Assembly (NCBI GenBank): GCA_965217775.1
Contig: CBDCJH010000002.1
Span: forward strand, 5,952,001 to 6,016,000
From: Acidobacteriota bacterium
GTDB taxonomy: Bacteria; Acidobacteriota; UBA6911; RPQK01; JAJDTT01
Direction of reading: 5' to 3'
DNA: 64,000 nucleotides
The translations under genes were made by a program, and so were the position numbers. Under the pieces are notes generated by a model. It made no database searches. It was given only the letters and a program-made list of their open reading frames with translations, and had not been told where the DNA came from. Each line of letters opens with the position of its first letter. Positions within the stretch are counted from its first letter, which is position 1. Shown one piece after another: positions 46,932 through 55,946 of the stretch.

Positions 46932-48341
46932 GTGGCGACTCCGTCTGTGCGAGATCAAGGGGAATCCGGACCGGGCCTGCGCCGGGCCCTGGGGCCGGGC
47001 ATGGCTCTGGCCATCGTGGTGGGAAACGTCATCGGTTCGGGAATCTTCCTGAAGCCGGGGAGCATTGCCGCCGAAGCCGGGGACTTCCGCCTGATCCTGT
47101 CGGCCTGGCTGGTGGGCGGCGCCGTCTGTGTCCTGGGCGCACTCTGCTTCTCGGAGCTGGCCGCCATGCTGCCCCGCGCCGGGGGCCTCTACGCCTTTCT
47201 CAAGGAGGCCTACGGTAAACCCGCCGGCTTCCTCTTCAGTTGGAACGAGTTCCTCTTCAACCGGCCCGCCAGCATCGGAGCACTGTCGGTGGCTTTCGCT
47301 GGCGCTCTCGGCCTCTCGATGGGCCGGACCCTGACTCAACTGGAGACCATCGTCCTTGCCCTGGGCCTCATCCTGCTTCTGACCTGGGTCAACATCCGGG
47401 GCGTTCTCTGGGGGGGATGGGTGCAGGGCGGCACGACTTTGGTCAAGGCCTCCTTCCTGGGACTGGTGGCGCTGCTGCCGTTTCTCATGACCCCCATTAC
47501 CGAGACCGGGATCGACTGGGCCAATTACAGCTCCCGCGTGGAGCCCTCTGGAGAAATGGCTTCCGGCACCCGCTTCGGCCTGGTGCTGCTCTCGGTCATG
47601 TGGGCCTACAACGGCTGGCACGGAATCACGCCGGTGGCCGAGGAGGTGCGGAACCCGGAACGCAATCTCCCCAGGGCCATGTTCGGCGGCGTCGGTGTGC
47701 TGATCGTGCTCTATGTCTCCGCCAATATCGCCTATCACGGAGTACTCTCGATGGAAGAGATGGCTGCCGCGGGTCCCCACGCCGCCGAGACCATGGTGGC
47801 TGCCCTGCTGGGGCCGTTCGGCGCCGCGGCCATGGCGGCCGTCGTCATGTGCAGCACCTTCGGCGGGATCAACAGCAACCTTCTTCTCTCCACGCGGATC
47901 CCGTTCGCCCTGGGCCGGGACCGCCTCCTGGCACCCGTATTGGGAAAGGTCCACGCCGCCTACCGCACTCCCTTCGTCGCCATCATCGTGCAGGCCGTCA
48001 TGGCGGCTCTCCTGGTGGTCGTCTCCGGGCTGCTCATCGAATTTCTGGGCTGGTCGGGAGAAAAGACCATCTTCCAGATCCTCACCGACTTCATCATCTT
48101 CGCCAACAGCATCTTCTACGTCCTGGCCGCGGCCGCTCTGTTCATCCTCCGCCGCAAACGGCCCGGCTGGAAACGGCCCTATCGGACCTGGGGATACCCC
48201 GTGGTGCCGGTGCTCTATCTCGGCTTCTACTTCTGGTTCCTGACGCAGGTGTATCTGGGAAAGCCGTTCGAGGCCAGTGCGGGAGTCGTCCTCATCAGCA
48301 CCGGCATTCCGGTCTACTGGATCCTGCGCCGGGGCCACTGA
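46932..48341 (+). CDS. APC family amino acid permease (start uncertain)
   Basis: VIGSGIF, ELAAMLPRAGG, WAYNGW, EEVRNPERNLP, RPYRTWGYP. Confidence 0.92.
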   Translation: MATPSVRDQGESGPGLRRALGPGMALAIVVGNVIGSGIFLKPGSIAAEAGDFRLILSAWLVGGAVCVLGALCFSELAAMLPRAGGLYAFLKEAYGKPAGFLFSWNEFLFNRPASIGALSVAFAGALGLSMGRTLTQLETIVLALGLILLLTWVNIRGVLWGGWVQGGTTLVKASFLGLVALLPFLMTPITETGIDWANYSSRVEPSGEMASGTRFGLVLLSVMWAYNGWHGITPVAEEVRNPERNLPRAMFGGVGVLIVLYVSANIAYHGVLSMEEMAAAGPHAAETMVAALLGPFGAAAMAAVVMCSTFGGINSNLLLSTRIPFALGRDRLLAPVLGKVHAAYRTPFVAIIVQAVMAALLVVVSGLLIEFLGWSGEKTIFQILTDFIIFANSIFYVLAAAALFILRRKRPGWKRPYRTWGYPVVPVLYLGFYFWFLTQVYLGKPFEASAGVVLISTGIPVYWILRRGH

Positions 48342-48405
48342 AGCGGGAAAGGCGTGCAAGGAGCGGGGACCGGAGTCACCTCAATACAACTAACGATTTT
48401 CTTTT

Positions 48406-51400
48406 TTATGCCACCCTCGAAGATGCTATTAATCGGGCGCGAGCATGAAACCAGGAGTCTATCGGTAATATTCTCTCTATCTCATCAAGATGATCGAGGA
48501 ACATCCGCAAGCATTTTTTGGGGTGAGGAGGTAAATGGGTCGCGATAATGGCCAATCTCTCCTCAAGCCATTTGAACCACACATCATGCGTTTCATGCGC
48601 GGCAGCGGCTTGAAACATAATCTGGAGAATAATTTGGATAGCTTTTTCTTCGGGAATTCTCGGGACGATCCTGATAACTGCATCCGAGATCCCATCTGCC
48701 AACATAGTATCGCGGTTCGCGGCTGCGACGATGCTGGCCAAACCTAAAAGCTTCCACTTCTCATGCGGCTCGGAATCGGAGTTATTTTCCGCTATTTTTT
48801 TTACAGCTTGCAGTGCGTATTCTATTTCCGGTTCGCCCAAAGCAAAAGACTGAGAAGCTATACTGAGCAGCTGCAAAAGGAATAGTTCACTTCTAGCCGT
48901 CGATTTTTCTCCAAGTTTAACGATGATCTCCTGTGGAACCGGTTTCTTTGGTCGCCTATGACCTTCAAGGGGGCCGGGGAAGAATCCAAAGGCAAACGTT
49001 TGTCCATGATCCTCGTCCCGAACAAGTGCATGAGCTATATCTTCCGACCTCGGTACTTGGTGCCCCACGCGTTCGTGACGGGATTTGAGGATATAGAGGC
49101 GGCCGAGTATTTCATTTCGCAAAGCCTGTGTTGATGATATGCGGTGTGCAAAGAGCATCGGCTCCTTCCTAGCACTTACTAGGTTCGAATAGAAACCGGC
49201 CACTGCCATGTTGTCGCCAGCCCATTCCTGAAGCGCGTCGGCATCGATTGAAGGATTTAAACTTGTTAGGGCTCGGGCAATCAGCCCAGCCTGCATCCAT
49301 GCGCACATCCGTTTCCAATAGCCGGGGTAATTCGATCCGTTTTCCAGAAGATTGATCCGGTTGAGCACAAAGTCCGCGAGGATCGGAAGAAGCCTATATA
49401 AGTTAGGACCATCCTGTTGTCCAAGTTGTTTGTCCAAAAGCGTGGCAACAGCCTCGGCAGAGAAGTCTCGAAACCGATGGTCTCCTTGTCGATACAGCGC
49501 GATGTCGAGGGCACCCAACAACGAGAACGGGTTGCTTTCGACGTCACATGAAGACACTACATCCCAAACGAGATCATCGTTAATGGTGGTACACCATAGT
49601 CCCGGTGTCAGGTCGTCCCGTAATGCGCCTAGGCAACAGATATCGAGCCCTACTCGCACATCTCGGTTCAAAAGTGCCTTCCGGTAGGGAACGAGAACTT
49701 CGTGAAAATATGATTCAGGTTCCCGCAAACCAGGTGCCGGGCCAGCATATTGCTCAAAATAAGAAAACGATTGTGGAATGATGTCTGCAACATTGAAGCC
49801 TCCCCCACGATTGATTTTTTGGATAAAGGTGGCTTGAAGGGCCGCGGCCCCATTAGCAGACTCATTGAATATAGTGGAAAGCTCTTGGTCGTTTGCCTCA
49901 CGGGCTTCCATGTTTGTGAGCAACCCTTGGAGGTCCGGGGCAGTTGGTCCGAATTGTTCAATCAGACTCCGAAGCGCGGCAATCCGCGCTTTTCGATTGG
50001 GTGAAAGTAGCGCCAATTGGGGAAACTTTGCCCGGTGGGGAACGGACTCGGCGTCGGACCACTTAACGACTATGTTCTGGTCTCTCATATCTAGGCCGAC
50101 TAATAATTCCCTCCCAGCAACGCCTTGAACAGATCTCTCTTTACTAGTAGCCAAGACTTCCCTCGCTGCCGCAAACAGCTCGCTGTTTACCAATTGGATA
50201 TTTGATCCTATTTTAAAGATCTGTCTTGTCTCAAAACCACTTCGCTTCGCGAACTCCGCATCTTGGGCAATAACTACTCTGCGAGCGGCCTCTGGCAACC
50301 GGTCCAGAAAAAGATTTCCGTATCTTTCTTGATCGTTTTCAAGGCCTGAAATCGACTCGCGGGCGGAGGTAAGCGCCTTCTCGATGATGCTCTTATTGGC
50401 GGGTCGCAAGGCCTCAAGGACGGATTGGTCGATCCAGTGAGTGTAATGTACTCGGCGATCTTGCGGGAGGATAGCCGTTGGCAAAAGTAGATTCCCTAAA
50501 CGCAGAGGTATCAGTTCTCGGAGCCAAGCCGTATAGTCACCATGTTCGAAATGTTCATGACCCAAAATCGCTTTCATCATCAGATGGCACCAAACCCAGT
50601 CGGATAGCGCCATTGTTCGTTCGATAGTAAGGGATGAATCTTGCCACAAGTGCTCGATGGCGGTGCCAATAGCGCAGTGGATGTTAGCGGACAATGCCAT
50701 CATTTCTTTTGTGGCAGCCAAGCTGAGGGTGTCAATGTGAGTCACGGCCTGACGGAGAATTCTCAGTTCCGCGCTCTCTTTCAATTTGCCGTCGTCCACC
50801 GTCGCCGACTCCAACCAATGCATCAACTCGTCGGATTCAATCGGGACGAAGACAAAACCGCTCTGTCGGAGCTTGTGCCGCGCGATCCAGTGGTCGGCAA
50901 TACTAATGCATCCGCGAGAAACGAGGTAACGCAATATATCCAATACGCATACAATGGGGATTGATTGTCCAGTACGGTTGGTAATGACCGGGTGACTGTT
51001 GATGTAGCGATCATCGATAGAGAGCGCATCACAGGCAGCTTTGCCTGCCAGCACAGATGCCGTTGCTTGGAATCGAATCTCATGCTTCTGAACCCGCTTG
51101 TCCCGCTCGACGGCGCGTGGTAGGAAAGACGCCGTTCCGGAGCTCAGCGCATTTCGCAAGATATCGCTAATCCGTTCTATCTTTTTCACGGATTCACGGC
51201 CCACATCACCTGCGTCGATGAGCGTGTGTATTTCGTCTAGAATGTCTGGATGGATCCGCATGTCCAGCCCACTGGCAGCTAGTGGCTCCAATAAGCTGGC
51301 GCTTTGCAGGTAGGATAGAGCAAGTCCCTCTACGTAAATGGGACCGTTGAGGACCGAAGCTGGGAGATTCGCGTGCTGTGATTGACCCTTGCCGCGCAAG

Positions 51401-54400
51401 AATGAGCTTGCCTGTTGATAAATGTTTGCGTCGATTTGTCCTTCGTCGAGGCACAGTTTGCAGAGATCCATTGTTGAGAGGATCAAGTCGTCATGCTCGC
51501 TCATGTCCGCATGTTGTTCCATCAGCGATCCGACCTTACGGATCGGTAGAACACAAATGACCTTGCCGTTGTCATGTCGGGCCATATGAAAGAGCCCGGC
51601 TAGTTCGAGTCCTACTTCGTCGATGCTAGTCCTGGGAGGCGCACCCAAGTTAATGGCGGCTCGAAGCTGTTCCCGGCTTTGGAGTTCCCGCACATTCGTG
51701 GCTGCGGCTGTACGAAAAGGCTGGTGAAAACGAACTTCATCCCTTTCGCGAAATAGAAACTCCATGATGTTTGGAGCCAGCTCGGTGTGGTGAAATGCCG
51801 CAACGGTGGTTTCCAGTAGATCGAGGCGGTCAAGAATCAATATTGAGGTCAAGTCCAAACCAATCGTCCAGTCGTCCTGCAATTCAATCGGATTCTGTCC
51901 ACCGGCAATGACCGGGAGTATCACTCGGCAGCGACCGTCTAGTTCGATGGCATGCTGATTGGAGAAATGGAGCAGAAGGCGCACAAGCGACTCTTGGCAC
52001 CAAGTTGTGGTAAAGTAAACCCTCGGATTACCTCTCAGTTTCAAGAGGAGCCCGCCAGCCCAATTTGCCCATTCCTCGCCGCGTTTGCGGGCGAGCAACG
52101 CACCCATCACAATGTTTGTTGCAGTCTGGACTTTGAGATCATTGAGTCGTTTGTTAGCCCAGATCGCATTGATGAAATCTGCTGCGAGTCTGATATGTGA
52201 GACAGGCTCTGCGGTCTTGGTGCCGATATAGGCGCAAAGAGCCTGTAGGTGCACAAGCTCGTTGCTCGTATCCCGCTCGAATGCTGAGAGAAGCACCGGT
52301 GTACTAATCGAGACATAATCATCACGATAAGCGGCAAAATGCACAAGCGCTTCGCTATAGTCGCTCAGAGTCATGGTCTCTGCTTGCTGCGCGCTCAACA
52401 GCACCGCCTGGAGCCAAACTCCCTTGGTACCGAATGCCAAGCCAGCCCACTGGCGCATCGTCAGGTCTTCGCAGAGCAGCAATCGGTCTTGGCCTGCGAT
52501 TACTGCCGGGGCGATTGCATCACCGGACGGAAAGCCAAGTAGCGTCTCGCCTACTTCAGATAAATCGTCAGGAATTACGACGGGCTCGACTGTACAGGCT
52601 TCCTGGATGGCCGCGAGTCGTGACTCGATCAAGTCCAGGTGGCCAGCGCGTTCCTCCGGAGTCATGATCTGGCGGATATATTGGCCGTCCTGATAGGTGA
52701 GGCTCATCGTTTCCTCATTAGCTTCGCCAACAGGATCATCGAGCATTTGTTTGAGGCGGCCAAATTCGTTGGCCGGAATGACGAGAAGACCCAGTTGCTC
52801 CTTGAGAACAGGAAAAACTCCGAGTTCTGCGGCACGCCAAGCAGTAAACCCGTCTAGAACTGCTCCGGAACAACCATTGTCTTCGATTAGAGCAAGGGCG
52901 TCGGCGCGCTCATCCTCCGTTCCATAACAGACGCGCATGCCTTCTCCAATCGAGATGAGATACTGGACGAAAGCGATGCTGCCGCCCCGCCTATCTCCAA
53001 CAATGAAGGCGATAGGAATTTTGTCGATGAGATAAAGATTGGCTTGGGAGCGAGCCGCCTCGCTAAGGCGGCGCACCTGCTCCAGGACCGGCTCTATTTC
53101 GCCCTCGGCAATAGGCACGCTAGCAAAACCTCTGGCGTCCGGAAATCGCCGACCGAAATTCCTGCTAAGGTGATGGAAAGCTTGCAACCAACGGGGCTTT
53201 ACGACCGATACGGTCCAGGTTTCGGTCACGTCTAGGGCATCAACGTGTTCGAACGTATCGCCGATTGTTAGCCCAACGGCCTTAGCAACGAAAGTGTTGG
53301 AAGGATCTACCCTTTCACCCCAAGGCCGGTCGGCCGCATCGCCCACAAGCACCTCAAAATCCTCGCCTCGGCTTGATGTCAGACGAACCCAGACACCGGG
53401 TGTAACAATGCCATCGAAATTGTCCGGTCGATTCGGTGTAGGTTTGATGACGAGCCCCAAGAACTTTCTCACCACCTCAGCGCGGTCTAACCCGTCAATT
53501 AGGGCTTGGTACCCGAGTTCGAGCGCGCGTGCGCTCTCACCACAATCGAGAAGGACATGACAAAATTCGATGCGCGCAAGGGGCGAGCCCCGTAACGTGT
53601 CGACGCCGTCACGTTGCAGGAGCGATACAATGGAATCTCTATCTCCGACTCCGGAATAAGCGGCAATGAGGCCCATCAAATTTTCGATACAGGGCTGTTT
53701 CTCAAAGGCAGTGGCAAAGGGATCGACCGCCTCCTCTGGGACTCCGCGTTTGAGATGGAGAACGCCTTCAAAGCTTTGAAAAACAGGCAGACTTCGGATC
53801 TCAGGGGATAGGCTTTCGAAGAAACGCACCGCGCGGTCTCGTATCGGAAAGTCGTGAGCAAGCGCTTGGGCTAGCAAACGCAATGCAGCACTATCGTTGT
53901 CAAGTGGCATATGGCCAGTCAATATATCTGCTGCGATGCTGGGTTTACCGCTCTCCATGGCTTCTTGTGCGATCGAGAAGCGAGAAACAAACTCATCGTC
54001 TCCGCGTTCGAAGGCTGATTGTGCAGTTGTGAAATATGTCCTTGCGAGATCCGTAAATCCATGCTTGCGGGCACCTTGGGCGAGTAATATCAAGGCGCGT
54101 GTATCTTTTTTAAATGTGTCTTGCTCTGCTTCGAAGATTGAACAGCGCTGTTCCACAGGAGATTGTTCTACGTTTGCAAGCACCCGCGCCGCGCGGGCGA
54201 GACCCCGCACCTCTTCGGGAAAGGTCTCTTCATAGTTGTCGATGAGGTCGGAGACAGTGCCCCAGTCTTTAGTGGCCATGGCCACGTTGTAACGAATCAT
54301 CACGGTGTTGGGGCTGGGCTCAAGTTCAGATACCAGAGATAGTGCCCGGTCGATATCGCCCTGTTCGAGTAGTGCGGTTGCGAGGCATTCCTTTACTGTG

Positions 54401-55821
54401 ACGTTGCCGGGAAAGCGGTCGAGCGCTTCGTTCCCAATCGCAATGGCTTTCTCACGTTCCTGCAGCAGCCGGTAGGCGACCATAAGGTTTAGCGGAACAG
54501 ACAGCAGCTTGTCGCCGGCATGATGAGCGTGATCGCGGATCCGCGGCCAGCAGGTCTCATATATGCTGGTTGCTGTTTCGACATCGGTGCGCATATCTTT
54601 GCTGAGAGCCCGGTCGTCGAGAACACCGGCTCTGTCGAGGACCCGTTCGAGGAGTGCGCAGGCATAAACTTCATTAATCGCATCGTTATCTGGGTGCGCG
54701 TCATAAGCGGCGATGGCGGCATCCCACCAAGAGCCGTGGCCGGCCCGAGCCATGAGCCATCGCACGTGAGCTTCTGCGACCTCGGGCTCACCACGTACCG
54801 TTTCTGGCACATGAGCAAGCGGATCGGTTACGGTCTCGTCGGCCACCATGCCTTGGATGTAATATGCGGCAAGCTTGGCGTTGTCGGGGAATTCTGATAG
54901 TTGAGTTTCGGCGAATGTCTTAAGGGCGGTCCAGTCGGCCTGAAGAAACAGACCTAGCGCTTTGTGAGCGATCGCTTTAGAGTTGCTAGGGTCATAGTCG
55001 TAGGCGGCAATGAGGCCTTGCGCGGCGGTTTCTTCTTCTCCGAGGTTAAATTGGCAGGCGGCAATATTAGCCGCAACTCTGAATCGGATATGGTCGGTGG
55101 CGTCGTCATCAAGGTCCGCTTGGAGTTTTTGAAATAACTCTAGGGCTATTGCGGGGTTAGCAGAAATGAGAACAGCATAATCATTGACTTGGCGTTCGAG
55201 CGTGGTATGGGCTTTTGTGTCACTGATGGCTGGGCTGATTGCCGGCTTGATCTTCTCGGCTTGCAGCATCGATTTGAGTTGTGGACCAACTGAATTGGCA
55301 ACCTCACGAGCCAAGTCCTCCATCTTGTTCTCAAACCAGTTTGCGTATGGTGTGTGGGATGGGTCGAACGCTTCAAGCGCCCGGGGATGGCGGCGGATCT
55401 CAAATTCTAGGCTACCCCAACCGAGAACCCGGACTTTGAGATCCTTCTCTCGGTCCTTGCTGGCAGAGATGGACAGTTCAAGGGCCAATGTGTCGAGGTT
55501 GGCGTCATCGGGTGCGGTAGTAACGATGATGTATTCCGAGAGAAGCGGCCTGAATGCCAGTGCCTTTTCGACTTCACTTCTGACTTCAACTTCGGTAAGG
55601 TTTTTGCCGTAGCCCTTCAGCTTGCATTGCACACCAACGATCCGATTTGGGGTATTCTCACGGATACCGATGAGATCGACACCATATTGATTCTGGCCTC
55701 GACGGCCGTATAATTTGACCGTGTCGTCCTTGAGAATATAGCTCCATAGAATCCTGTTGCAGCGCTCGAATGTTTGTTCGTCACTGGGTTTGGGAATCTG
55801 CGTGGCCGTGAATTCAGACAT
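48406..55821 (-). CDS. 2471-aa putative defence protein: Mrr-like PD-(D/E)xK nuclease, TPRs, GreA/B C-terminal-like domain, PIN-like domains
   Basis: Uninterrupted 7.4-kb ORF in lower-GC DNA; FE...GRRGQ.Q.GVD...GVQCK...TT...GW nuclease motifs; helical repeats; VLDG...CED and GLDLTS...IDD PIN-like motifs. Confidence 0.75.
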   Translation of the reverse strand: MSEFTATQIPKPSDEQTFERCNRILWSYILKDDTVKLYGRRGQNQYGVDLIGIRENTPNRIVGVQCKLKGYGKNLTEVEVRSEVEKALAFRPLLSEYIIVTTAPDDANLDTLALELSISASKDREKDLKVRVLGWGSLEFEIRRHPRALEAFDPSHTPYANWFENKMEDLAREVANSVGPQLKSMLQAEKIKPAISPAISDTKAHTTLERQVNDYAVLISANPAIALELFQKLQADLDDDATDHIRFRVAANIAACQFNLGEEETAAQGLIAAYDYDPSNSKAIAHKALGLFLQADWTALKTFAETQLSEFPDNAKLAAYYIQGMVADETVTDPLAHVPETVRGEPEVAEAHVRWLMARAGHGSWWDAAIAAYDAHPDNDAINEVYACALLERVLDRAGVLDDRALSKDMRTDVETATSIYETCWPRIRDHAHHAGDKLLSVPLNLMVAYRLLQEREKAIAIGNEALDRFPGNVTVKECLATALLEQGDIDRALSLVSELEPSPNTVMIRYNVAMATKDWGTVSDLIDNYEETFPEEVRGLARAARVLANVEQSPVEQRCSIFEAEQDTFKKDTRALILLAQGARKHGFTDLARTYFTTAQSAFERGDDEFVSRFSIAQEAMESGKPSIAADILTGHMPLDNDSAALRLLAQALAHDFPIRDRAVRFFESLSPEIRSLPVFQSFEGVLHLKRGVPEEAVDPFATAFEKQPCIENLMGLIAAYSGVGDRDSIVSLLQRDGVDTLRGSPLARIEFCHVLLDCGESARALELGYQALIDGLDRAEVVRKFLGLVIKPTPNRPDNFDGIVTPGVWVRLTSSRGEDFEVLVGDAADRPWGERVDPSNTFVAKAVGLTIGDTFEHVDALDVTETWTVSVVKPRWLQAFHHLSRNFGRRFPDARGFASVPIAEGEIEPVLEQVRRLSEAARSQANLYLIDKIPIAFIVGDRRGGSIAFVQYLISIGEGMRVCYGTEDERADALALIEDNGCSGAVLDGFTAWRAAELGVFPVLKEQLGLLVIPANEFGRLKQMLDDPVGEANEETMSLTYQDGQYIRQIMTPEERAGHLDLIESRLAAIQEACTVEPVVIPDDLSEVGETLLGFPSGDAIAPAVIAGQDRLLLCEDLTMRQWAGLAFGTKGVWLQAVLLSAQQAETMTLSDYSEALVHFAAYRDDYVSISTPVLLSAFERDTSNELVHLQALCAYIGTKTAEPVSHIRLAADFINAIWANKRLNDLKVQTATNIVMGALLARKRGEEWANWAGGLLLKLRGNPRVYFTTTWCQESLVRLLLHFSNQHAIELDGRCRVILPVIAGGQNPIELQDDWTIGLDLTSILILDRLDLLETTVAAFHHTELAPNIMEFLFRERDEVRFHQPFRTAAATNVRELQSREQLRAAINLGAPPRTSIDEVGLELAGLFHMARHDNGKVICVLPIRKVGSLMEQHADMSEHDDLILSTMDLCKLCLDEGQIDANIYQQASSFLRGKGQSQHANLPASVLNGPIYVEGLALSYLQSASLLEPLAASGLDMRIHPDILDEIHTLIDAGDVGRESVKKIERISDILRNALSSGTASFLPRAVERDKRVQKHEIRFQATASVLAGKAACDALSIDDRYINSHPVITNRTGQSIPIVCVLDILRYLVSRGCISIADHWIARHKLRQSGFVFVPIESDELMHWLESATVDDGKLKESAELRILRQAVTHIDTLSLAATKEMMALSANIHCAIGTAIEHLWQDSSLTIERTMALSDWVWCHLMMKAILGHEHFEHGDYTAWLRELIPLRLGNLLLPTAILPQDRRVHYTHWIDQSVLEALRPANKSIIEKALTSARESISGLENDQERYGNLFLDRLPEAARRVVIAQDAEFAKRSGFETRQIFKIGSNIQLVNSELFAAAREVLATSKERSVQGVAGRELLVGLDMRDQNIVVKWSDAESVPHRAKFPQLALLSPNRKARIAALRSLIEQFGPTAPDLQGLLTNMEAREANDQELSTIFNESANGAAALQATFIQKINRGGGFNVADIIPQSFSYFEQYAGPAPGLREPESYFHEVLVPYRKALLNRDVRVGLDICCLGALRDDLTPGLWCTTINDDLVWDVVSSCDVESNPFSLLGALDIALYRQGDHRFRDFSAEAVATLLDKQLGQQDGPNLYRLLPILADFVLNRINLLENGSNYPGYWKRMCAWMQAGLIARALTSLNPSIDADALQEWAGDNMAVAGFYSNLVSARKEPMLFAHRISSTQALRNEILGRLYILKSRHERVGHQVPRSEDIAHALVRDEDHGQTFAFGFFPGPLEGHRRPKKPVPQEIIVKLGEKSTARSELFLLQLLSIASQSFALGEPEIEYALQAVKKIAENNSDSEPHEKWKLLGLASIVAAANRDTMLADGISDAVIRIVPRIPEEKAIQIILQIMFQAAAAHETHDVWFKWLEERLAIIATHLPPHPKKCLRMFLDHLDEIERILPIDSWFHARARLIASSRVA

Positions 55822-55946
55822 GGATTAGAACGAGCGCAAGCCTGACGAGGCAGTGTTTCAATTTCCTTTATAACGTAACGAAAATCAAGGAATACGCGCT
55901 GACTATCACATTGCCAACGACACTTCGTGTTGCTGCTGGTAGGGGG

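Follow-up and report, generated by a model that had tools for sequence, protein, structure and literature searches.

The DNA analysed here, hereafter the window, is a stretch of 64,000 nucleotides from an Acidobacteriota bacterium (GenBank assembly GCA_965217775.1, contig CBDCJH010000002.1, positions 5,952,001 to 6,016,000). It carries, as the sole gene of a low-GC insert of 7.6 kb that separates the genes for a permease and a PhyH protein, a giant open reading frame (ORF) whose protein, P0001, served as the query of our comparisons (coordinates in Table 1). A previous sequence-only reading had announced an intact 7.4-kb ORF of 2471 amino acids (aa) and proposed a single-gene anti-phage system made of a nuclease, tetratricopeptide repeats (TPR), a GreA/B C-terminal domain and several PIN domains. 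The frame is indeed continuous: the ORF listing gives 2471 aa plus a stop, with an ATG start and no stop inside. The gene is present in one copy in its genome (G000), a metagenome-type assembly with an estimated contamination of 7.5%. The ORF is genuine and not a chance frame, because 101 proteins of its length class are related to it at E<=1e-3, four sequences are colinear over 100% of it, and 161 shorter proteins are relatives of its first half. As judged from these alignments the protein is a chimera of two separate families, with the seam between aa 1277 and 1278; we call module A the part before the seam (aa 1-1277) and module B the part after it (aa 1278-2471).

The relatives of similar length fall into three groups. 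In the first are the four proteins colinear over their full length: the query, P0002 and P0003 (85% identity) and P0004 (72%); P0005 (1823 aa), a fifth relative, covers 74% of the query. The second group, P0006 and P0007, has only the first half of the query in common with it, and the third, about 90 proteins typically 2050-2090 aa long that carry PF24407 (HTH_upst_double_PIN), matches the second half only. In pairwise alignments P0006 is 73% identical to aa 1-1277, and residues 877-2060 of P0012 are 64% identical to aa 1276-2459 over 1187 residues; P0008-P0010 display 71-72% identity with the second half. Among the shorter relatives of aa 1-1277, most of the best 120 of the 161 are 1290-1300 aa long, cover 99-100% of this part and are 44-73% identical to it. 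The P0006 and P0012 alignments, together with these shorter proteins, thus indicate that a stand-alone protein of about 1300 aa was fused, with the reading frame kept, to the C-terminal 58% of another of about 2060 aa. No similarity was found between the N-terminal regions of P0006 and P0012.

The seam falls inside the helix-turn-helix (HTH) of the second parent: PF24407 lies at 845-910 in P0012 and the similarity starts at 877, the query keeping only the part of this HTH that matches 877-910. A Pfam search gave no PF24407 match in the query at E<=1. The N-terminal TPR-like region of the second parent, about 840 aa, is missing, and module A stands in its place. All four fused proteins have Q1276, E1277, S1278 and L1279 at the junction, which is a sharp cut point for separating the two halves. 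One might suspect an error of assembly or annotation that joined two neighbouring genes, as the assembly is of metagenome type, with the contamination given above, and the halves belong to different families. However, the same junction occurs in the congener genome G005 and in two further metagenomic proteins, and short contigs bridge window position 51990 with the frame continuous, in runs X1 and X2 of one study (0 differences; X1 may be the sample behind the genome assembly) and in run X5 of another (7/200 nt). We consider such an artefact virtually impossible.

Module A belongs, as an ordinary member, to a family that has been described but hardly studied. By its sequence, this first half alone is a protein of the TGP (TPR-GreA/B-C-PIN) system of Kaur et al. 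2021, since the effector, the TPR array, the GreA/B-C domain and the PF20698 PIN are all present and in order. The last 20-35 residues or so of stand-alone TGP proteins are missing at its end. An AlphaFold2 model computed for aa 1-1200 from 102 sequences (mean predicted local distance difference test, pLDDT, 86.4), lays out an alpha/beta domain (aa 1-155), a disordered segment (162-204), helical repeats (205-792), a beta domain (805-876), helices and a PIN-like domain (987-1130). The motifs quoted by the sequence-only reading lie where it had placed them, both in this module (GRRGQNQYGVD, aa 39-49; GVQCK, 63-67; VTPGVWVRL, 806-814; AVGLTIGDTF, 848-857; WTVSVVK, 869-875; AVLDG, 987-991; LLCED, 1115-1119) and in module B (IGLDLTS, 1320-1326; IYVEGLALSYL, 1495-1505; LSIDD, 1600-1604).

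The N-terminal domain looks like an Mrr-type PD-(D/E)xK nuclease, as had been proposed. The residues E19, D49 and Q65 are found in 102/102 relatives, and position 67 is K in 86 and R in 16 of them. In the model the elements succeed one another as H15-29, E50-53, E61-67, H77-87, E96-101, H107-121 and E129-133 (H, helix; E, strand), an order that fits the alpha-beta-beta-beta-alpha-beta core of this fold. In the ESM Atlas the named clusters closest to the domain are Mrr_cat_2 (0.97) and Mrr_cat (0.94), with 10/10 best matches in one family or clan. The Pfam match to Mrr_cat (PF04471) covers aa 37-102 (window 55516-55713) with 13.9 bits, below its cut-off of 21, and Mrr_cat_2 (PF13156) does not match the query. 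Searches of PDB sequences returned only archease (E 0.3) with the N-terminal domain, and only weak TPR or helical-repeat chains (E>=0.028) with the A1 profile. A close relative of module A, P0218, has a TIR domain instead of the nuclease at its N-terminus.

The helical repeats that follow gave 246 Foldseek matches against the PDB at E<=1e-3, and the best 50 or so are TPR or related helical-repeat proteins, among them IFT-A, Ctr9, Ski3 and the TPR of OGT. These matches confirm the TPR array; they do not address the small domains. PF20698 is the only domain that Pfam recognises with confidence in the protein, the TPR_19 match being weak. It covers aa 988-1126 with 65.6 bits (cut-off 27.8, E 7.2e-18), in agreement with the PIN block seen earlier, and the acidic residues of this domain, PIN1, are kept: D990 in 102/102 relatives, E1019 in 101/102, E1118 in 96/102 and D1119 in 102/102.

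Between the repeats and PIN1, the Gre-like domain (strands 810-816, 821-826, 856-860 and 866-876 in the model) aligned by hhalign with GreA residues 81-153 of 158, over 71 columns, with a probability of 92.9% and an E value of 3.8e-7, the reversed control giving E 0.18. Before this comparison the TGP alignment had been widened by seven divergent sequences of the phylum, and the GreA alignment by six sequences from five other genomes. Judged by this profile comparison, aa 804-876 are homologous to the C-terminal domain of GreA, and the GreA/B-C domain of the sequence-only reading is retained.

For module B, an AlphaFold2 model built on 85 sequences is confident (mean pLDDT 86.7, predicted template-modelling score, pTM, 0.78). 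It displays a helix remaining from the HTH, two alpha/beta domains, a helical region, a beta domain and an all-helical solenoid down to the C-terminus. The helical tail of about 800 aa announced by the sequence-only reading is therefore helical for its main part, but it also holds a beta domain of about 70 aa (aa 1868-1933). The further PIN-like blocks that it had noticed fall within the "double PIN" region of the PF24407 family, and this family name is itself a further support for a double PIN. In relatives, PF20698 matches the region equivalent to the first block (PIN-A) in P0062 (25.7 bits) and P0095, and that equivalent to the second (PIN-B) in P0078 (29.6 bits, above the cut-off), P0015 (27.1), P0012 and P0234. 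With diversified alignments hhalign aligned PIN1 with PIN-B over 116 columns (E 6.7e-4), D990 facing residue 1498 and E1118-D1119 facing D1603-D1604, and with PIN-A over 37 columns (E 2.8e-3). The elements of the model come in the PIN order beta-alpha-alpha-beta-alpha-alpha-beta-alpha-beta. Altogether, these profile matches and the model give moderate support to a PIN fold of both blocks.

Conservation differs between the two blocks. Among 181 family members, PIN-B keeps an acidic residue at 1498 (D/E, 87%) and 1549 (D/E, 91%), and D1603, D1604 and D1628 at 98% each; with this full acidic set PIN-B is predicted to be probably active. For PIN-A, 175 members keep D1323 (98%), E1359 (90%) and E1402 (96%). 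For the small beta domain no relatives were detected, and even diversified alignments showed no similarity to the Gre-like domain or to GreA.

Table 1. Features of the fused gene and of the insert that holds it (positions in the window; aa, residues of the protein)
Feature	Position	Strand	Residues and basis
Whole ORF (P0001, query)	48406..55821	-	ORF listing
Mrr-like PD-(D/E)xK nuclease domain (predicted)	55351..55821	-	aa 1-157; E19, D49, Q65-x-K67
Low-confidence linker	55210..55350	-	aa 158-204; pLDDT <50 at 162-204; 64% identity to the G005 copy
TPR-type alpha-superhelix	53437..55209	-	aa 205-795; AlphaFold2 helices, Foldseek, weak Pfam TPR_19
GreA/B C-terminal-like beta domain	53194..53412	-	aa 804-876; hhalign, AlphaFold2 strands
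Helical connector	52870..53193	-	aa 877-984; AlphaFold2
PIN domain 1 (PIN1, PF20698)	52417..52869	-	aa 985-1135; D990, E1019, E1118, D1119
C-terminal helices of the TGP module	51991..52416	-	aa 1136-1277; alignments, AlphaFold2
Fusion junction and last helix of the PF24407 HTH	51892..51990	-	aa 1278-1310; P0012 alignment
PIN-like domain A (PIN-A, predicted)	51463..51891	-	aa 1311-1453; D1323, E1359, E1402
PIN-like domain B (PIN-B, predicted)	50773..51462	-	aa 1454-1683; E1498, E1549, D1603, D1604, D1628
Helical region	50233..50772	-	aa 1684-1863; AlphaFold2
Small beta domain	50005..50232	-	aa 1864-1939; AlphaFold2 strands at model residues 597-662 (aa 1868-1933)
Alpha-solenoid tail with strongly conserved motifs	48409..50004	-	aa 1940-2471; AlphaFold2
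Low-GC insert	48332..55945	.	borders set against the empty site of congener G004
5' intergenic part of the insert, presumably with the promoter	55822..55945	-	82% identity over 111 nt to the G005 upstream region

The fused form is rare. It is known from four full-length sequences, 72-85% identical, and from one genus of Acidobacteriota. In the best 150 of the 1875 clusters of the module-B family only the query's own carries module A, and among 51 genome loci with module B only the G005 copy (L022) is fused. PF20698 was found in 13/401 sampled genomes of the phylum; a 2472-codon open frame occurs only in G000 and G005, and the frames of the others have 164-1545 codons. Two of the Acidobacteriota loci, L101 (G002) and L102 (G126), have PF20698 PINs (52-54 bits) in frames of 590 and 548 codons, which are either truncated TGP genes or short forms without the TPR array.

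Both halves are under purifying but relaxed selection. Between the G000 and G005 copies dN/dS is alike in the two, 0.42 for module A and 0.37 for module B, and the segments of module B range from 0.27 to 0.58, none of them looking neutral. This, the integrity of both halves in the four diverged sequences, the invariance among fused proteins of the conserved PIN-B residues and of the tail motifs, and the confident model of module B argue against an evolutionary accident in which only one half, the TGP part or the double-PIN remnant, would still work. Such an accident would on the other hand account for the cut through the HTH of the module-B parent with removal of its whole TPR-like region, for the incomplete acidic set of PIN-A, for the rarity of the fused form (2/13 PF20698-positive genomes and a single cluster, as said above), and for the fact that TGP and module-B genes are not neighbours elsewhere. 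We hold it to be quite unlikely.

The synonymous divergence is less even: dS is 0.14 for module A and 0.27 for module B. Segment by segment in the same comparison (window gene against L022:6188-13603), the lowest values, 0.05-0.10, belong to aa 798-1277; aa 1-157 and 205-795 have 0.16-0.22, the segments of module B 0.25-0.32, and the linker (aa 158-204) reaches 0.64. Such unevenness may reflect recombination within the gene. As for the origin of the fusion, the fused proteins form one group in the module-A tree (FastTree support 0.65), and three unfused proteins, P0008-P0010, fall among the fused ones in the free tree of module B. The approximately unbiased (AU) test on module B does not reject a single fused clade (p 0.67), so that a single origin is possible.

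The family behind module B is large. A scan of 1.84 billion representative proteins gave 1875 clusters at E<=1e-3, 603 of them at E<=1e-30, from many bacterial phyla, a few archaea and plasmids. The usual form, about 2060 aa, consists of a TPR-like region, the HTH (PF24407), two PINs, the beta domain and the alpha-solenoid. Shorter members keep the HTH, with weak TPR matches upstream of it, and a few members (P0032, P0041) have SIR2 at the N-terminus. Split forms also exist, with a protein of about 1430 aa ending after the PINs and another of about 630 aa starting just before the beta domain; their genes are adjacent in genomes and on an Agrobacterium plasmid, where they overlap by 4 nt. On plasmid p1 of Leptolyngbya boryana (L117, NZ_CP092420.1 381922-388563), a 2213-aa "caspase family protein" contains the double-PIN region, with 22% identity to residues 49-744 of the query's module B (module numbering), beside multiubiquitin, ThiF-family and DUF6527 genes, a UvrD-like helicase and two transposases.

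At 15/51 loci two conserved small genes that overlap by 4 nt, the first for about 200 aa and the second for about 153 aa, are found 0.1-1.5 kb downstream of the double-PIN gene, as a pair that is usually convergent with it, for example L018:13645-14705 on the minus strand; the other 14 loci are L019, L020, L021, L023, L025, L026, L028, L030, L034, L035, L045, L047, L064 and L066. The pair has no Pfam, NCBIfam or PADLOC match, and neither the window nor G005 contains it; it may serve the double-PIN family as an accessory or regulatory component.

Compared by sequence, the architecture of this family is parallel to that of TGP, because optional effectors, TPR-like repeats, a small domain directed at nucleic acid or polymerase (an HTH where TGP has Gre-C) and PINs of the PF20698 kind come in the same order; the C-terminal tail is the family's own, and TGP has none. 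Our literature searches found no paper describing the PF24407 double-PIN family, which is known only as a Pfam model; neither PADLOC nor NCBIfam has a model for it, and none of the proteins studied here is named in any source. The C-terminal extension and its parent family are thus, as far as our searches reach, undescribed, and the extended multi-PIN form that the sequence-only reading had suspected to be uncharacterised has likewise no describing paper among those we found. It is possible, and we put it forward tentatively, that the double-PIN proteins form a widespread single-protein immune family, sister of TGP, and that the chimera is a natural domain swap in which the transferred cassette is autonomous. 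If true, the double-PIN/solenoid cassette would be an autonomous effector or assembly unit that a foreign sensor docking on RNA polymerase can drive; and if the family is a defence system, it would be a common one missed by the current defence finders.

The insert that holds the gene has a G+C content of 0.50-0.56 versus 0.61-0.68 in both flanks, and the G+C of third codon positions is 0.55 in the gene versus 0.78-0.84 in four neighbouring genes. Homology to relatives ends at 48331 and restarts at 55946, which leaves only 74 nt and 124 nt of non-coding ends. The flanking genes encode a Lon protease, a carbon-nitrogen hydrolase and the amino-acid permease on one side, and the PhyH-type dioxygenase and a malate/lactate dehydrogenase on the other. 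A scan for promoters and terminators gave nothing at the ends of the gene, and no sigma-70-like site on its strand in 55822..55945; its hits were fewer than in shuffled sequence (promoter-like sites, 2 versus a mean of 4.9; terminator-like, 6 versus 8.3).

Within the genus, the permease and PhyH genes adjoin each other in all five genomes examined, and their spacing varies: 39-40 bp in G004, 550 bp in G001, about 850 bp in G003, about 1220 bp in G006, 7.6 kb in G000 and about 19 kb in G005. In the short inserts of G001, G003 and G006 no trace of the gene was found. In G005 the fused gene is followed by HsdR, a Schlafen/AlbA_2-Fic_C protein, HsdS, HsdM and an IS630-type transposase; this cargo of about 19 kb (L011, G005:C1:1934000-1947000) also holds small ORFs, one of them weakly YdaS-like, and its transposase is in two ORFs. 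No tRNA gene was found within the window. The permease/PhyH site is a variable integration hotspot, with neither tRNA gene nor integrase nearby. Contigs of runs X1, X2, X3 and X5 turn into unlike sequence exactly at 48332, and one X2 contig does so at 55942, which suggests that several alleles of the hotspot, differing in content, are present together in the communities sampled.

Elsewhere the distribution is sporadic and plasmid-borne. The query protein has matches in 8/61 related genomes, mostly partial or restricted to one module (this tally, the GreA_GreB scan and that of the 401 genomes include an unpublished genome, G016, on which nothing else in this account depends). Module A has relatives on 52 plasmids, with a coverage of at least 80% of the query in 12 cases, and module B has relatives on 8 plasmids, 2 with this coverage; one plasmid copy has VapBC, an integrase, an HsdR-N protein and a SIR2 protein as neighbours. 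The neighbourhood of homologues had been proposed as a check by the sequence-only reading, and restriction-modification and toxin-antitoxin genes do occur near relatives. In 121 ORFs beside 31 module-B genes, Pfam recognised ResIII (4), type I S subunits (3), Eco57I (3), HepT (2), AAA_15 (2), AAA_21 (2), Mrr_cat (2), PIN (2) and transposases (2), along with ordinary metabolic genes. An AbiEii-like AAA is also among the neighbours, and PADLOC found there three type I specificity subunits and three MADS components; these figures are counts per family and not a statistical enrichment.

Two observations concern genes outside the window. In G000, five ORFs of about 146 aa (G000:C2:313327, 445730, 803508, 838103 and 1567833) match Mrr_cat with 25-30 bits; one of them has an internal TAG, and they look like copies of one small nuclease gene, which may belong to a repeated element. 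In Spirochaetia, a 2004-codon frame (L116, G435:C1:2728663-2731875) contains a genuine GreA_GreB C-terminal domain (PF01272, E 3.4e-8) and is thus a further giant protein with a Gre-like domain.

Altogether, we consider it likely that the protein is a single cytoplasmic fusion of two conflict-system proteins, most probably a self-contained abortive-infection protein directed against phages or mobile elements. We infer this defence role, as well as the binding to RNA polymerase, the substrates and the order of events. In this scheme the TPR array would sense an infection cue and hold the enzyme domains in check, while the Gre-like domain would dock the protein at the secondary channel of RNA polymerase. 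PIN1 would then cut the transcript, and the Mrr-like nuclease would be the last-resort effector, cutting DNA. The appended cassette would provide a second RNase arm, with a full acidic set in PIN-B and a partly degenerate one in PIN-A, and its solenoid might be a binding or assembly platform. Having neither its own TPR nor its HTH targeting part, this cassette would now be steered by the TGP half.

Several observations weigh against this picture. The query and its module-B relatives are known from sequences and models alone. A first hhalign comparison of the Gre-like domain, with closely related sequences only, gave E 0.047; the Pfam model GreA_GreB (PF01272) misses the gene and in G000 matches only the host GreA, and the ESM Atlas gives no usable match for this segment. 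As for module B, its PIN folds are deduced from near-threshold Pfam matches in relatives, weak hhalign alignments and the order of elements; the hhalign probabilities are low (27% for PIN-B, 11% for PIN-A), the first narrow hhalign and hmmsearch profiles showed no link of PIN1 to either block, and Foldseek with the whole module-B model returned only karyopherin/HEAT-like solenoids, with template-modelling (TM) scores of 0.13-0.17. PIN-A has no conserved acidic residue after strand 4 in the 175 members and may be inactive, perhaps structural. The window neighbours are housekeeping genes, none of them for defence. PADLOC has a model for neither TGP nor the double-PIN family, and a weak match to LmuA is the query's only one. 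At none of the other 50 module-B loci was a TGP gene found within 10 kb; the fusion is therefore not a "Rosetta stone" for a common gene pair, and nothing independent speaks for a cooperation of the halves.

A non-immune function has also to be considered, either as a selfish addiction or toxin module or as a regulator of host transcription or RNA-processing factor. PIN and PD-(D/E)xK domains serve as toxin domains too, the Gre-like domain could in principle modulate host transcription, and the foreign composition, the variable locus and the relatives borne by conjugative plasmids beside integrases and toxin-antitoxin pairs would suit a selfish element. However, the insert, with its short non-coding ends, holds no antitoxin-like small gene, and the Pfam and NCBIfam scans found neither a secretion signal nor a polymorphic-toxin architecture. 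The swaps of the N-terminal effector (restriction endonuclease (REase), TIR, SIR2, caspase) match the pattern drawn by Kaur et al. 2021, in the part of that paper available to us, and one TGP protein, Agp, acts in phage defence. The distribution is moreover sporadic and not lineage-wide, and for this reason a housekeeping role is disfavoured. A non-immune protein thus appears rather unlikely, and the reading best supported remains that of a TGP-type immune protein, self-contained, which has captured the effector and platform half of another, parallel system.

With Avs and other STAND proteins the query has in common a giant single chain, a nuclease effector at the N-terminus and a repeat sensor at the C-terminus. 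The sequence-only reading had noted the lack of an NTPase/STAND motif, and rightly so: the protein has no Walker A motif, no NTPase family was found in the Pfam, NCBIfam and PADLOC scans, and with no P-loop family in Pfam a membership in Avs/STAND is rejected. Lamassu was rejected as well, the match to LmuA being weak and limited to aa 16-118 (E 1.3e-3), with no LmuB SMC partner gene in the insert.

The Mrr-type endonucleases resemble the N-terminal domain by the E...D...QxK motif, the order of elements and the nearest language-model clusters, but the latter would be an effector inside a giant protein and not a stand-alone modification-dependent restriction enzyme. GreA, GreB and Gfh1 have in common with the query the C-terminal RNA-polymerase-binding domain, to which aa 804-876 appear homologous; the query is without their N-terminal coiled-coil finger, and the host GreA is a separate gene. 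The PF24407 family shares PIN-A, PIN-B and the helical, beta and solenoid parts, but the query has neither the TPR-like region, nor the first half of the HTH, nor the downstream pair of small genes.

The closest known system is that of TGP. According to the accessible part of Kaur et al. 2021 (PMC8195603, eLife e70394), TGP proteins combine a constant core with 13 kinds of N-terminal effector, REase included, and are mostly stand-alone genes; effector swapping on a constant core is presented there as the pattern of sensor-effector immune proteins. In the model that these authors propose, the Gre-like domain engages the beta' coiled coil of an RNA polymerase that has been hijacked, the PIN cleaves the transcript once extruded, and the N-terminal effector serves for suicide as a back-up. 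Their text, as far as accessible, makes no mention of a C-terminal extension, though the supplementary architecture tables may list one, and the accessible part of Kaur et al. 2020 (PMC7159879) does not treat Gre-like domains. The only TGP member with experimental anti-phage evidence, in what is available of Ibarlosa et al. 2024 (bioRxiv 10.1101/2024.11.07.622273), is Agp of E. coli ECOR25, which together with Bab confers abortive resistance to T5; a mutation in its Gre-like domain abolishes the signalling, and no Bab-independent activity of Agp was seen. Agp, which we compared by its description, has the same TGP core as the query, but it carries an N-terminal amyloid (BASS11) motif and signals to the separate pore-forming Bab, where the query has a fused nuclease, the double-PIN extension and no partner gene in its insert.

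As in TGP at large, aa 1-1277 of the query hold the whole core in order, with an effector of the REase type, in a stand-alone gene of sporadic occurrence; the difference is that about 1190 extra C-terminal residues replace the last 20-35. The gene adds to TGP a nuclease-bearing, single-gene member with all the predicted catalytic residues in place, and it physically links TGP to the much larger family of giant double-PIN proteins.

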